In this document: one piece after another, positions 19,312 to 23,745 of the stretch
How positions within the stretch are numbered: the first letter of the stretch is position 1
Layout of the letters: every line of letters begins with the position of its first letter
Program-made: the position numbers and the translations under genes
The notes under the pieces: generated by a model
Databases searched by the model: none
What the model saw: the letters and a program-made list of their open reading frames with translations, nothing else
What the model was told of the DNA's origin: nothing
Origin: an uncultured Acidobacteriota bacterium
GTDB lineage: Bacteria > Acidobacteriota > UBA6911
Assembly: GCA_963809485.1 (NCBI GenBank)
Contig: CAWEJX010000019.1
Span: 1 to 64,000, forward strand
DNA length: 64,000 bases
Direction of reading: 5' to 3'

Positions 19312-19528
19312 CCGGGTTTCAACTCCTGCAATTCAATGTACCATGGTTGCCATCCATTTCTCAGATGTAATTCAGAGGCATGAAACAGGTGGGGACTCAC
19401 CTCGCATTTCTCGCAGCTTTTCTGCTGCCTCTGCGGTTCAAAAAGCTTCACAGATGTTTATTGCGCGTGATTCCGGTTTTATGTTTTGTCGGTTGCGATC
19501 AGGCCCCTTTGAGGCGCCGGCAACCATA

Positions 19529-19557
19529 AAGCCTCCGGCTCTGCCGGAGAATACCTA
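19529..19557 (+). repeat. Solo IS200/IS605-like right-end hairpin
   Basis: AAGCCTCCGGCTCTGCCGGAGAATACCT resembles the right end of the MITEs at 28.3, 37.5 and 48.9 kb. Confidence 0.55.
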
Positions 19558-20749
19558 ATCCATGTTGGCAAATCCCTGTTCCAGGTCGCCGATGATGTCG
19601 CGGGGATCTTCGAGGCCGACGGACAGGCGGACGAGTTCGTCGATGATGCCCGAGCTTCATAGCGCTCCTCGCGGCTGAGGTTGTAGTAGCTGTTGAGCGC
19701 GGGGTGGGTGACAAGGGTTTCCGGGCCGCCCAGGCTCGGGCCGAGCATGCACAGTTTCAAGCCGTCGAGGAACTTGAGCGTCTGCTCGAGATTGCCGTTG
19801 ATTTCGAAGGTGACGACGGCGCCGAATCCCTTCATCTGACGTTTGAGGCCAGTTCATATTGGCGATGGCTTGGAAGACCGGGATAATACACGCGGCGTAT
19901 CTGAGGCTGCTTTTCCAGGAATTGAGCAACCTGCATTGCGGTGCTGTTCAGCCGTTCCATCCGCATGCCGAAGGTTTTGAGGCCTCGAATCAGAAGATAG
20001 CAGCTCATTGGATCGGCAACGCCGCCGGTCATGCGGCGCCACTGATAGATCGGCTCGGTAGCTTTCTCCGATCCCAACGCCGCTCCGGAAAGGACATCGT
20101 TGTGCCCGCCCAGATATTTGGTGGCGCTCTGGATGACGATGTCGACTCCCCGTTCGAGCGGCCGGCTGTTGATAGGGCGTGGCAAAAGTGCTGTCGATGA
20201 CGCTGAGCACTTTGTGTGCGCGCGCGATCCGCACAATTTCGTCGATATCGGCGATGTTGAGATACGGATTGGTCGGAGATTCGGAGATGATCATGCGGTG
20301 GAGGGAGTGACGGCCTTTTCCATGGCTTCGTAATCGCCCATGGGGACGACGGTGCAGCTGATACCAAACCGGGGCATGACGCGCTTGACCATCGCCAGGG
20401 TTTGCTTATAGGCATCGTCAGTAATGATGATGTGTTGCCCCTGGATGCAGTTGGACAGGATCGTGGCGGAGACCGCGCTCATGCCGCAGTCGAAGAGGAC
20501 GCAACGCTCGGCGCCTTCGAGGGCGGCCAGTTTGAGCTCGGCGGCCTGGCGCGTCGGGTTGCCGTAGCGGCCGTATTCGTAGTGGTCGATCTCGCCGTTG
20601 GCGAAGGAGACCATTTCGGCAACATCTTTAAAGACAAAGGTACTGGTGTAGTCAATGGGAGTCGTGATGCTGCCCATCCACCGCTTTTCGCCGCAGTGCA
20701 CCGCGATGGTGTCTCGATGTCCGGTCGGTTTTTGCTTAAACTCGTTCAT
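19555..20749 (-). CDS. PLP-dependent Cys/Met metabolism enzyme (cystathionine gamma-synthase/lyase family), several frameshifts
   Basis: YGRYGNPT, ESPTNP, DSTFATP, SATKYLGGHND (PLP Lys), SLGGPETL, ending GFANMD*. Confidence 0.85.
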
Positions 20750-20906
20750 ACAGATCTCCAAATTGCTCTAATTAGGATGGCGCGCCCCAACAGCATCCAG
20801 GTCGGGGCCGATATCAGTCGGATCCGACCGTCATCCGTCAAACGCAAAAAAATATTATTATTATCCCAAATTCCCACTTAGTTGCGATAAATCTGTGCAT
20901 TTGCAG

Positions 20907-20935
20907 TTGGACGTAAAACAGGTTTCTGCTACAAT
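20907..20935 (+). promoter_or_regulatory. Putative sigma70 promoter of selC
   Basis: TTGGAC-17 nt-TACAAT with extended TG, 12 nt before the tRNA. Confidence 0.6.
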
Positions 20936-20947
20936 CACAGCGGCAGC

Positions 20948-21046
20948 GGAGGTGAATCTGGCCTGGTGGCTGGCCTGGACTTCAAATCCAGTTGTGGTTT
21001 ACCGGAAGGTAGGCTAGGTGGGTTCGATTCCCATGCACCTCCGCCA
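20948..21046 (+). tRNA. selC: tRNA-Sec (anticodon UCA)
   Basis: 99 nt; acceptor GGAGGTG/CACCTCC-G-CCA, anticodon arm CTGGA-CTTCAAA-TCCAG, long variable arm, T arm GTGGG-TTCGATT-CCCAT. Confidence 0.95.
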
Positions 21047-21060
21047 CTCTTTTTGGCTTT

Positions 21061-21198
21061 TAACGGTTAACGGGGACGGACCACGATAAGGCCTTCGTAA
21101 GATTATAGATATCTCGGTTTTGGGGATTGTAACGGTTAACGGGGACGGACCACGATAAGGCCTTCGTAAGATTATAGATATCTCGGTTTTGGGGATTG
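21061..21198. repeat. Perfect 69-bp tandem duplication carrying the GGGGACGGACCACGATAA motif
   Basis: 21061-21129 repeated at 21130-21198. Confidence 0.9.
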
Positions 21199-21280
21199 AT
21201 AAAAGGGCTTAGGCGCAACTTTAGGCGGCATTTACGCGTGCAAGGATTTATGGAGCTTCGCTGATTTTTTAATTCAAAGA

Positions 21281-21329
21281 TTTTTCGTGGTCCGACCCCG
21301 AATCCACCCCGAATCCCACCCCGAATTTC
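21281..21329. repeat. Inverted motif TTTTCGTGGTCCGACCCC followed by three CCCCGAAT stutter copies
   Basis: Read directly; inverse partner of the 21069/21138 motifs. Confidence 0.75.
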
Positions 21330-21857
21330 TCAGGGCTTGCCTTTCCCGAATACCGGAATGATAAATTCCTTTTCCAGGTTCTCAGTGCTGAGAAAGGCTC
21401 CCACCTTTCTTGCGACAATGGTCCCATCGATATCGATGAGCAGGCTTGTCGGGAGTTTCCGGACGTCGAGCTTGACGAATAACTCCGTGTTCGGGTCCAG
21501 GAGCACGGGGAGAGCAAGAGCATACCTCTTGGCGTATCCGCGCACCCGGGAAGCGTTCTCGCCCATGTTGATCAAGAGCACCACCAATCCCTTTTCGCGC
21601 CATTGATCCTGGACCTGCCGGAGAACGCTCATTTCATTCAGGCAAGGACCACACCAGGTCGCCCAGAAATTGAGAAGCACGAGCTTTCCCCGAAAGTCAT
21701 TCATCGAGACCGCTTTCCCCCTAATGTCTTTGAGGGAAAAATCGGGGGCCTTTTCCAGGCTCTGCTCCGCGCGGCTCAGTGAGCCGGCCGCTAGAGCAGC
21801 GATCATCAGCAGGGTGGCAACCGCAGCCCGGAACCCGCAGGCTGAGTATCTTTTCAT
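21330..21857 (-). CDS. TlpA/ResA-family exported thiol-disulfide reductase
   Basis: Signal peptide, APDFSL, LLNFWATWCGPC, cis-Pro LPTS. Confidence 0.9.
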   Translation of the reverse strand: MKRYSACGFRAAVATLLMIAALAAGSLSRAEQSLEKAPDFSLKDIRGKAVSMNDFRGKLVLLNFWATWCGPCLNEMSVLRQVQDQWREKGLVVLLINMGENASRVRGYAKRYALALPVLLDPNTELFVKLDVRKLPTSLLIDIDGTIVARKVGAFLSTENLEKEFIIPVFGKGKP

Positions 21858-21896
21858 CTCCTTATCGCCACCCCATCTTTCTCGACCCCTTGCATC

Positions 21897-21915
21897 AGGC
21901 AGAAGACCTCCGCCT
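21897..21915 (-). promoter_or_regulatory. Putative bacterial SECIS element
   Basis: Minus-strand hairpin AGGCGGA-GGTCT-TCTGCCT begins 11 nt after TGA(21927-21929); loop matches fdhF-type AGGUCU. Confidence 0.75.
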
Positions 21916-21923
21916 TGTCGGTT

Positions 21924-23018
21924 CTATCACCCGACGCAGGGGATGAAAGAACGAAATCCCGTCACCACATCGTAACCCATGCAGTCGCGCTTCTCATCAT
22001 AGCGGTTCGGTGCGATATCGCTTCCCGGCAGCGAGAGTGACCATGCGGCGATGCCCCATCTAAGGCTGACCGCGTCATATCCCAGCAGGCTGAGAACAGC
22101 AGCGGCTTGTGCGCTGTCGTGTCCCGTTTCGCAGTAAACGACAATCTGCCTGTCCGGCGGAAGGCGCCGGAGATTTTCCCTGCTGAACAGAGCCCGAAGC
22201 GGAATGTGAAGGCATTTGTCTATATGGCCGAGGCAGTAGGCAGCCTCATCGCGAACGTCGAGGACGAGGGGAGCCACGTAAGGATTCTCGGAAGCATGGA
22301 GAAGGGCATAGAGCTCAGGCGCTGAAAGAGTGAAAGGTTTGCCCAAGTCACTAAAGTAAAGACGGCTTGCCGAGAGGATCGTCTCGAAGCTGTCGCGCCC
22401 TTCGCCGTTTTCAAAATCGGGGAAGTCGTAAGTCTCCTGAGGAGAGTCGAGGCGCTGCACTGTTCTATAGCTACCGCCCGACATCCAGACGGTATCCCTT
22501 GAACTCTCATATCGACCCGGCGCTGCATCACTTTGGGCCGTCCAGGCCGTCATACCCCATTTTAGATTGACCGCGTCGTAGCCGAGCAGATTCAGAATGG
22601 CCGCCGCCTGCCCTCCAATCTGCCCCGTACCGGAATAGACCACAATTTTGCGGTCTTTCGGCAGGTCCTTAAGGTATTTCCAGTCGGCTATGTTTCTCAA
22701 TGGTATATTCACGGCTCCCGGTATGTGACCAAGCGCGTACGGGTTCGGCATATCCGGGTCGGGGGTGCGCAGGTCCACTATTATGGGCCCCTTCCTGAAC
22801 GATGAGGGATCGTAGTTTCGAACGTCGAGGAGCGCCATACTGGAGATCATAGACTCATAAAGCGCCTTCGCATTGATCTCAAGGGGGCGGCCGCTTCCCA
22901 GATAGCCCTCGGCGGCCGCCCTTATCGTTTCGAAGTCGGCGTCTCCACCGTTTGGCGAAGCGCCAAAAACAATAATCACGAACAAAGCTGGAATGATCGC
23001 GAAAAGACGTTTTTTCAT
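21924..23018 (-). CDS. Exported tandem-rhodanese (sulfurtransferase) protein, probable selenoprotein ending CVGU
   Basis: Signal peptide MKKRLFAII..; two rhodanese domains (GHIPGA..VVYSGTG; GHIDKC..VVYCETG); ends TGC GTC GGG TGA TAG followed by SECIS-like hairpin. Confidence 0.8.
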
Positions 23019-23279
23019 GATCGGACCCAAACGCGGAACGGTCTGTCTCACCTCCATTTGCCTAAGGATGCGGGAGAAAGAACGTCGCGCTTTCCATAGC
23101 CCCAGCCTCCGCCGTCTCCGCCGGCAAACACAATCCTGATCTGCTGGGGCGTGAACAATTTCCCATTTCCTGCCTCCCTCAATGTGGAGACACATGCGCC
23201 GGCAAAGAAGTGTCCTTCTTCCTTTTGTATGCTTATGCTCCATTTTCTGACGCGGACGGCATCTTTGTCAAAAGCATTC

Positions 23280-23745
23280 AGAGCTGAATAGTGGCGGGAT
23301 GTGAACGTGTGACGCTTGACGGGGTCACGGGTCTGTTCAGCTGGATGAGGATAGGGACAGAGAGATCGGCTGACCATCCGTTGCCGGGACGCCACTCAGC
23401 GGATCGGATCCCGTATGCCTGTGCTGGCCCGTTCTTGCCGTTTTCATCCGTATCGCAACAAATAGCCGCCTGCATCAACGGCCGCTGACATTGGGAGAAG
23501 CCGTAAAGCGAGTGCAAAGCTGGATCGATCAGCCGTACGTTCGGATCATTCTTCCGACGGAGCAGCACCGGGATATCTTCCAGCGAATGCTCTCTGATGG
23601 AAACGCAACAGCCAATCTCGTACCGGATGCGCATCTGGCGGCACTGGCCGTGGAACACAACTGCAAGTTATGCTCCACCGACGCGGACTTTTCAAGGTTC
23701 CCCGGGCTGAATTGGCGCAACCCCGTCAGCGATAAGAAACGATAG
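23280..23745 (+). pseudogene. 5'-truncated/interrupted PIN (VapC) toxin gene
   Basis: Frame from about 23395 reads LSGSDPVCLCWPVLAVFIRIATN...LVPDAHLAALAVEH...STDADFSRFPGLNWRNP; N-terminal DxN motif and antitoxin absent. Confidence 0.7.

Follow-up and report, generated by a model that had tools for sequence, protein, structure and literature searches.

A tandem rhodanese that probably ends in selenocysteine, with a hairpin behind its stop codon, in an uncultured Acidobacteriota bacterium

In the rhodanese-like selenoproteins described to date, selenocysteine (Sec, U) is reported to lie at or beside the active-site loop of the rhodanese fold. A 2026 review, in the portions of its text at hand, distinguishes five such forms, carrying the motifs UxxS, UxxG, CxU (NF041203), UxxG and UxxxxU (TsoB, NF045694), and also names families with Sec at or near the C terminus, i.e., UXX-star 1 and 2, SaoC (Cys-Sec-COOH) and HgcB (GVGU) (PMC13188914). 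Where Sec stands within a few residues of the stop, the selenocysteine insertion sequence (SECIS) must lie behind its open reading frame (ORF); since UXX-star, SaoC and HgcB are known, this placement is not new in itself. Here we describe a tandem-rhodanese gene on the minus strand of the window, i.e., the whole 64-kb stretch of DNA that was analysed (positions 1 to 64,000 of contig CAWEJX010000019.1 from an uncultured Acidobacteriota bacterium), to which all coordinates refer. Judged by comparison with its homologs, the gene very probably represents a real, unannotated selenoprotein family in which the UGA at 21929-21927 is read as Sec. That this UGA is recoded as the last residue was the core of the original prediction for the locus, and the claim is now supported by comparisons of the TGA, of the hairpin behind it, of Cys-containing homologs and of the selenium machinery. 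The family appears to be a further, apparently undescribed one, a sixth rhodanese form with Sec outside the active site, as the very last residue.

Like the five forms, as the review portrays them in those portions, the protein combines the rhodanese fold (PF00581) with a UGA-encoded Sec, belongs to anaerobic or sediment bacteria and is predicted from sequence only. It differs from these U-first or CxU forms in that its Sec closes a C-terminal extension, within a CxxU motif 69 residues past the loop Cys, and in that the loop Cys of this family is dispensable. The window protein scored below the cut-offs of both NF041203 (25.4 bits, cut-off 115) and the TsoB model NF045694 (18.6 bits, cut-off 805), and no selenoprotein model of NCBIfam release 20 came near its cut-off for the window protein, two database homologs or three read-through homologs. 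With UXX-star, SaoC and HgcB, as described in the same source, it shares a Sec only a few residues from the true stop and truncation by gene callers, and six of its homologs, which read U-x-x-stop or U-x-x-x-stop, resemble UXX-star further. Those families are, however, unrelated, and none of their NCBIfam models matched the window protein (E ≤ 0.01) or the three read-through homologs (E ≤ 0.1). A C-terminal CxxU rhodanese is not among the five forms given in the portions at hand of PMC13188914; Haft & Gwadz 2023 or Haft & Tolstoy 2025 might describe it. Our search of the literature on rhodanese selenoproteins, bacterial SECIS and Dehalococcoidia found no description of the CxxU form, and rhodanese does not come up in the papers on deep-Sep and BSepDB.

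The end of the gene and the region behind it comprise three features:

21924..23018, minus strand: coding sequence of the candidate tandem-rhodanese selenoprotein, 364 codons including the TGA as Sec364, followed by the stop TAG (21926-21924)
21927..21938, minus strand: predicted C-terminal redox motif Cys361-Val-Gly-Sec364 (TGC GTC GGG TGA), with invariant alignment columns and TGA at 16 of 16 loci
21897..21915, minus strand: SECIS-like hairpin, based on RNAfold, family conservation and covariation, within the 69-nucleotide (nt) spacer before the next gene

The ORF starts at the ATG at 23018 (an alternative in-frame ATG, at 23057, lies 13 codons upstream), and 363 residues precede the TGA, the last of them reading Phe-Ile-Pro-Cys-Val-Gly. 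On the minus strand the gene ends with CCC TGC GTC GGG TGA (21929-21927) followed directly by TAG (21926-21924), exactly as had been read at the outset. The ribosome would decode the UGA as Sec364 and terminate at the next codon, UAG, yielding a protein of 364 residues; by the known bacterial mechanism, this recoding would be guided by SelB, which would bind both Sec-tRNA(Sec) and the hairpin at 21915-21897. The simplest alternative is that the UGA is an ordinary stop, that the protein ends Cys-Val-Gly, that the hairpin is an intercistronic element serving stability, processing or coupling, and that the second stop is incidental. As a baseline we took the ORFs of at least 300 codons in the genome of the window, which end with TGA (1549), TAG (1080) or TAA (941). 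A second stop directly adjoins 46 of the 1549 TGA stops, and an ordinary stop could draw on the occurrence of both tandem stops and post-stop hairpins at 3-4% of the genome’s genes. The single locus is thus only suggestive, not exceeding chance, and the case for recoding therefore rests on the comparison of homologs.

A protein search gave 654 matches. Among the best 120 of these 654, 77 homologs have at most 430 residues, and 65 of the 77 are recorded with a C-x-x end (PCPG, KCKA, ACPT and RCTT among them), none with CxxC; those that carry a name are labelled plain rhodanese proteins. That databases all record C-x-x ends would suit an ordinary stop, and it is equally what gene callers that miss the Sec, as the original prediction had expected, would leave behind. 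We then followed the reading frame to its stop in DNA, at one genome locus (L002, a Dehalococcoidia record) and 79 metagenome loci, two of which ran off their contig. Sixteen loci, 44-91% identical to the window protein, end C-x-x, and the stop at this end is TGA in 16/16, as against 4/51 of the other family loci, the remainder of which end with TAG (24/51) or TAA (23/51); this set of 51 leaves out a separate group B. An ordinary stop leaves such exclusive use of TGA unexplained. A second in-frame stop follows within four codons at 15 of the 16 Sec-type loci, compared with 14/51 other loci and 154/1548 in the genome. In nine of the 16 the very next codon after the TGA is TAA or TAG, in six a short tail (U-GG, U-GS, U-GGE or U-GSN) precedes the stop, and in one the tail is longer; ordinary termination likewise gives no account of the conserved short stretch of G-G or G-S codons that separates the TGA from the next stop. 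A seventeenth Sec-type end (C-T-T-TGA) is found at L030, behind a one-base frameshift a few codons upstream (L030:1680-1790) that points to a sequencing error or else to a copy in decay. The gene was found in two of 401 genomes of the window’s phylum, the second at 32% identity only, and in one of 301 genomes of the class of genome G401.

The recurrence of this end also bears on whether the gene end is damaged or mis-assembled, i.e., whether we are looking at the truncated pseudogene of a longer protein. The frameshift near the end of L030, and a neighbouring gene (19479-20761) split over three frames, which indicates errors or decay nearby, would be compatible with this. Yet the same end is present on 16 contigs, 65/77 database proteins (best 120 of 654) end C-x-x, the frame is not continued downstream, and the AlphaFold model is complete and confident to the last residues (mean predicted local distance difference test, pLDDT, 86.4), so that we regard a broken gene end as extremely unlikely. 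As a separate observation, contigs from four read sets stemmed exclusively from relatives ~94% alike, with none of the 40 listed differences (of 87) falling within 21854-21953; these were not used as evidence. Among the 24 sequencing runs listed for 21300-23100 there was none of RNA, all being of DNA or of unknown type.

The original prediction had raised the prospect of homologs with a Cys aligned to the TGA, and such homologs exist. Six loci, L085 included, encode single-rhodanese lipoprotein-like proteins that end E-C-P-V/T-C-P-TAG or P-C-P-T-C-P-H-TAG, and in an alignment of 18 sequences the second Cys of the five aligned CPxC proteins falls in the UGA column. The Cys361 and Sec364 columns are invariant in all 18 sequences, the five of Cys type included. 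Conversely, five close tandem homologs have other tails, and in four of these five the Cys is lost as well, from which it follows that Cys361 and Sec364 go together. Neither the aligned Cys of the CPxC relatives nor the joint loss of Cys and TGA is explained by an ordinary stop. Comparison across the family thereby shows the UGA to be a conserved, presumably Sec-encoding, sense position paired with Cys361.

The hairpin behind the UGA, as predicted by RNAfold, consists of AGGCGGA (21915-21909), the loop GGUCU (21908-21904) and UCUGCCU (21903-21897), giving 7 base pairs (bp), one of them G-U. Its stem starts 11 nt after the TGA, as had been claimed from the letters and is now confirmed by both the sequence and the fold, the spacer being TAGAACCGACA with the TAG counted, and the loop begins 18 nt after the UGA. 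The predicted stem lacks a bulged U, and no U-tract lies 3′ of the hairpin. An outer CGAC/GTCG pairing that had been proposed along with it did not hold up: the letters are present, but GTCG lies 10 unpaired nt away from the stem, the minimum free energy fold does not use the pairing, and it is not conserved, tight flanking being seen only in the close relative L015.

To compare loci we used a detector that accepts a stem of at least 6 bp starting 9-16 nt after the stop, with a G early in the loop. It was positive at 15/16 Sec-type loci and 0/50 other family loci; the one Sec-type locus that it missed, L010, has a stem of only 5 bp. The consensus hairpin, GGCGGA-CGUGU-UCCGCC, begins 9-15 nt after the UGA. 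In an alignment of 17 hairpins, 91.9% of the cells pair, as opposed to 40-65% in slid registers; both partners have changed in four of the seven stem pairs (34:44, for example, is GC in 7, AU in 5 and GU in 4), and none of 500 shuffles reached the covariation score. L013 and L030 have an unlike stem sequence, GUCCUUC-GUU-GAAGGAC, at the same position. Moreover, the hairpin is maintained irrespective of the next gene, be it for a sigma factor, threonyl-tRNA synthetase (ThrRS), short-chain dehydrogenase/reductase (SDR), MauE or redoxin, and its persistence before such unlike genes, as well as the missing U-tract behind it, argues against an intercistronic element after an ordinary stop. Finally, 12 distant loci were used to build a covariance model, with the window and its two close relatives excluded; the best match of this model in the 64-kb window lay at exactly 21932-21882, UGA on UGA. 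The outcome foreseen for a true Sec codon, a conserved TGA plus hairpin in the homologs and never TAA or TAG at this position, is thus what the family displays, the hairpin recurring at the same distance and with covariation.

A known bacterial counterpart is the SECIS of E. coli fdhF, whose mini-helix lies 11 nt after the UGA. In 1999, Arner is said to have placed this element in a 3′ untranslated region to make mammalian thioredoxin reductase (-Gly-Cys-Sec-Gly) in E. coli. According to the text at hand of PMC10778597, a SECIS in the 3′ untranslated region functions for C-terminal Sec in E. coli, and the apical loop of a bacterial SECIS lies 16-37 nt from the UGA; the minimal fdhF SECIS holds GCAGGTCTGC, according to the part at hand of PMC10945757. 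The window hairpin, with a G in its loop, falls inside this range at 18 nt, and its apex is GAGGUCUUC, which has AGGUCU in common with the minimal fdhF SECIS. The two elements are therefore alike in following the UGA closely, in the AGGUCU apex, in the distance of the loop and in a post-stop placement that is workable. Unlike the fdhF-based system for thioredoxin reductase, the arrangement described here is natural and not engineered, the stem is unrelated and its predicted form lacks a bulged U, and the binding of SelB is predicted only. In a scan of 20700-23100, Rfam had no matching SECIS family, a tRNA-Sec being the sole match.

A number of observations speak against recoding and have to be set beside this evidence. 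A hairpin of the type accepted by the detector follows 61/1548 TGA stops of the genome (~4%), and the local 76-nt fold is not unusually stable (z = -1.32; 21/200 shuffles were as stable). At the window the covariance model reached no more than 13.4 bits (E roughly 0.33), and a search of the whole genome with it returned nothing at E ≤ 1, so that the score at the window, not significant alone, would also sit well with an ordinary stop. In the same genome, the hairpins of selD and of the FlpD genes start 15-17 nt after their UGA and have GGC loops, i.e., they are a different element, and the traits shared with the window hairpin are therefore a G-rich loop and the position, not the sequence. Lastly, the 16 loci are related, with the near-identical pairs L019/L049 and L018/L021, and the counts thus overstate their independence. 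Weighing these points against the exclusive TGA, the aligned Cys and the covarying hairpin, we consider an ordinary stop very improbable, and recoding of the UGA as Sec364 the reading that the family favours.

Sec insertion depends on a dedicated machinery, the presence of which the original prediction had named as a check. The genome of the window (95.7% complete, 7.3% contamination) encodes selA (462.6 bits), selB on C20 at ~730-733 kb (wing-3 domain, 67.7 bits) and selD (345.5 bits), all above curated cut-offs, and the window itself contains the matching tRNA:

20948..21046, plus strand: tRNA-Sec with anticodon TCA (ARAGORN; Rfam RF01852, 70.6 bits, gathering score 47)

This is the only tRNA-Sec detected in the genome, and it lies ~0.9 kb from the rhodanese gene, 284 nt beyond the two-gene unit to which that gene belongs and on the opposite strand. 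The selD gene (C8:80982-81905) is itself of Sec type, its TGA lying in frame within SAAG-U-ASK, and two FlpD/MvhD genes (C3:6544-6912 and C1:482159-482530) carry an in-frame TGA, a further FlpD match having an in-frame TAG. Given this Sec-type selD and the two FlpD/MvhD genes with in-frame TGA, the organism is selenoprotein-rich. The genome of the distant homolog L002 likewise has a tRNA-Sec (68.2 bits) and selB (78.9 bits). A tRNA-Sec beside the homolog was found at 0 of the 18 other loci scanned.

Upstream of its unusual end, the protein consists of the following parts:

22956..23018, minus strand: N-terminal signal-peptide-like segment MKKRLFAIIPALFVIIVFGAS, recognised by eye; AlphaFold pLDDT below 50 for residues 1-24
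22536..22790, minus strand: rhodanese domain 1, residues ~77-161 (best Pfam stretch 77-161)
22038..22283, minus strand: rhodanese domain 2, residues ~246-327, with the active-site loop VVYCETGH and Cys295 (22136-22134)

Rhodanese (PF00581) is the sole Pfam family in the protein, matching in two stretches (112.5 bits, cut-off 22.2). The product is probably exported, as its N-terminal segment suggests, and lipobox-like N-termini are common among the homologs. In domain 1, Ser129 (22634-22632, VVYSGTG) occupies the position of the catalytic Cys and is invariant in alignments of 28 and of 61 sequences, on account of which this domain is predicted to be catalytically inactive. In domain 2, Cys295 falls on the loop Cys of 6mxv, a rhodanese of solved structure (YC..G.RSA loop), with His in place of the usual Arg; across homologs, this position is C, S or D, and in many of them S or D. 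The description first given of the two loops, Ser in domain 1 and a retained Cys in domain 2, therefore applies to the window protein, but conservation across the family does not extend to the domain-2 Cys. The AlphaFold model, computed with a 61-row alignment (pLDDT 86.4; predicted template modelling score 0.87), comprises two rhodanese domains and an ordered C-terminal extension, with a pLDDT of ~90 at residues 341-360 and of 69 for the last four residues. Its Foldseek neighbours are generic rhodaneses only, with whole-chain TM scores of 0.25-0.36.

As in mammalian thioredoxin reductase, a Cys/Sec pair at the extreme C terminus could shuttle redox equivalents from a buried site to a partner. 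The two differ in that thioredoxin reductase is a flavoprotein (a pyridine-nucleotide-disulfide oxidoreductase) ending GCUG on a long flexible arm, while this protein has the non-vicinal C-V-G-U, Rhodanese as its only Pfam family and an extension predicted to be ordered. Of the swinging arm envisaged in the original prediction, the terminal Cys/Sec pair accordingly stands, as an analogy, and the flexibility does not: the extension is modelled as ordered, with less confidence for the last four residues only.

A candidate partner is encoded by the neighbouring gene:

21330..21857, minus strand: exported TlpA/ResA/MauD-like thioredoxin-fold protein (WCGPC; Pfam AhpC-TSA 88.3 bits, Redoxin 82.8 bits)

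It starts 69 nt downstream of the rhodanese gene on the same strand, and the two are probably co-transcribed. In having an exported WCGPC thioredoxin-fold neighbour, and MauE/DoxX membrane proteins downstream of the homolog in L019, L021 and L053, the family resembles the TlpA/ResA and MauD-MauE modules. It departs from them in that the neighbour reaches no curated NCBIfam cut-off (ResA 114.5 of 170 bits, TlpA 76.8 of 230, MauD 23.6 of 188.6), and its partnership with the rhodanese tail is suggested by adjacency alone. Given that the CxxU end alone is shared by all members, with Ser throughout in domain 1 and C, S or D in domain 2, we take the Cys-Sec pair to be the reactive centre. Cys361 and Sec364 would then form a selenenylsulfide/selenol-thiol couple at the tip of the ordered extension, which would take a sulfane sulfur or selenium species held at or near domain 2 (here at Cys295), release the chalcogen or hand it on, and become oxidised with an Se-S bond in the process. 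The exported TlpA/MauD-like thioredoxin, which in relatives is accompanied by a MauE/DoxX membrane protein, would re-reduce the couple, and domain 1, with its Ser129, would serve as a non-catalytic scaffold. We put forward this Cys-Sec redox-arm chemistry, recycled by the neighbouring thioredoxin-like protein, as a tentative proposal that is somewhat more apt to be wrong than right: the position of the domain-2 Cys varies between C, S and D, a signal peptide is lacking in many members of Dehalococcoidia type, and among loci with a readable downstream flank a redoxin neighbour is present in three only, i.e., the window, L009 and L053.

The neighbourhoods of the homologs also admit a different role for the same residues. 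In L053 the rhodanese gene is followed by genes for a DoxX/MauE protein, an unknown protein and an AhpC/TSA redoxin, and the cluster is closed by a TIGR04112 YedE putative selenium transporter (L053:1912-2982, 439 bits). In L019, selB lies directly upstream of the Sec-type homolog (L019:221-2110). An Fdh-alpha-like gene lies upstream in L013, the TlpA-like gene of the window recurs in L009, and further loci have unrelated neighbours (extracytoplasmic function sigma factor, ThrRS, SDR or histidine kinase). It is conceivable, if on balance doubtful, that Sec is inserted and that the CxxU end serves, instead of as a redox arm for sulfane sulfur, as a site that binds or relays selenium, a soft metal or a metalloid; it could capture periplasmic selenium and feed a YedE-type transporter, or act as a ligand for Hg, As or Cu that is kept reduced by the TlpA-like protein. 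The YedE gene in L053, selB beside the homolog in L019 and tRNA-Sec beside the unit in the window are all in keeping with such a site, as is the finding that the family can do without the catalytic Cys of rhodaneses. Furthermore, a relative of Cys type weakly matches the NCBIfam model for the rhodanese-like ExtH of a selenite/tellurite reduction operon, and the C-terminal Sec of the SaoC and UXX-star families may bind metals, as stated in the portions at hand of PMC13188914. Each of these selenium-gene neighbours was, however, seen at one locus, tRNA-Sec is absent from the 18 other loci scanned, and Sec machinery often adjoins selenoprotein genes regardless of their function. The window protein gave no ExtH match at E ≤ 0.01, and no metal-transport or resistance genes were seen in the flanks scanned. 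Of the two roles for the Cys-Sec pair, we give the redox arm a slight preference.

Two further genes near the unit appear degraded. At 19479-20761 on the minus strand, a gene for a pyridoxal-phosphate enzyme of Cys/Met metabolism (PF01053) is split over at least three frames and is either a pseudogene or an assembly error. At 23491-23745 on the plus strand, an ORF of 84 residues matches the C-terminal half of a PIN domain only and probably represents a VapC-like toxin gene fragment.

Of note, other C-terminal and internal variants were found among the more distant relatives. L025-L029 and L032 encode tandem rhodaneses with Cys in both active-site loops and a Gly-rich tail that reads G-G-G-x-C-G before a TAA. 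This tail may be a Cys-only C-terminal arm, and it fits a recurring thiol or selenol arm at the C terminus of exported rhodaneses. At ten other loci (L033-L035, L037, L039-L042, L045 and L083; e.g., L040:3308-4702), rhodanese domains and a multihaem cytochrome are joined in one protein; the portion of L040 that was read contains 11 CxxCH motifs. The fusion contains an in-frame TGA (TSGEG-U-AGELPPLEVW) beyond which the frame goes on, and in 10/10 loci a hairpin, UACCUCC-GUU-GGAGGUA, starts 10 nt after it. No NCBIfam model scored above its cut-off for the fusion, which is probably another unannotated selenoprotein family. L040 also has an exact internal duplication of the two-rhodanese block (L040:1466-3607), reflecting an assembly artefact or a true four-domain protein.

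A more far-reaching possibility, which we think unlikely as a whole, is that the rhodanese is the exported entry point of a relay for the acquisition of selenium or sulfane sulfur, the relay being selenium-dependent itself. Here, the rhodanese scaffold would capture the chalcogen and pass it to the Cys-x-x-Sec tip, the TlpA/MauD-MauE module would recycle the tip, and import would be of YedE type. Synthesis would be gated by a SECIS lying wholly in the intercistronic spacer, and occupancy by SelB could set the translation of the downstream redoxin. On this account, the wider family would have invented C-terminal Cys/Sec arms repeatedly, as CxxU, as CPxC, as the Gly-rich tail ending CG, and in the multihaem fusion with its own UGA.

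If the UGA is indeed read as Sec, public annotation stores the homologs one residue short, as is the case for 65/77 (best 120 of 654). Searches for selenoproteins would be expected to pass over a UGA directly before a stop, because no downstream ORF remains, and selenoproteome counts would consequently be too low for Dehalococcoidia and for sediment and wetland bacteria. Bacterial SECIS elements are said, in the portions at hand of the 2026 review, to lie within coding regions (PMC13188914); the natural element predicted here, wholly behind the stop codon, would be a counter-example to a statement restricted to coding regions. Lastly, the pairing of this rhodanese with thioredoxin-like, MauE/DoxX and YedE proteins offers a concrete hypothesis on how these bacteria may handle sulfur or selenium in the periplasm.

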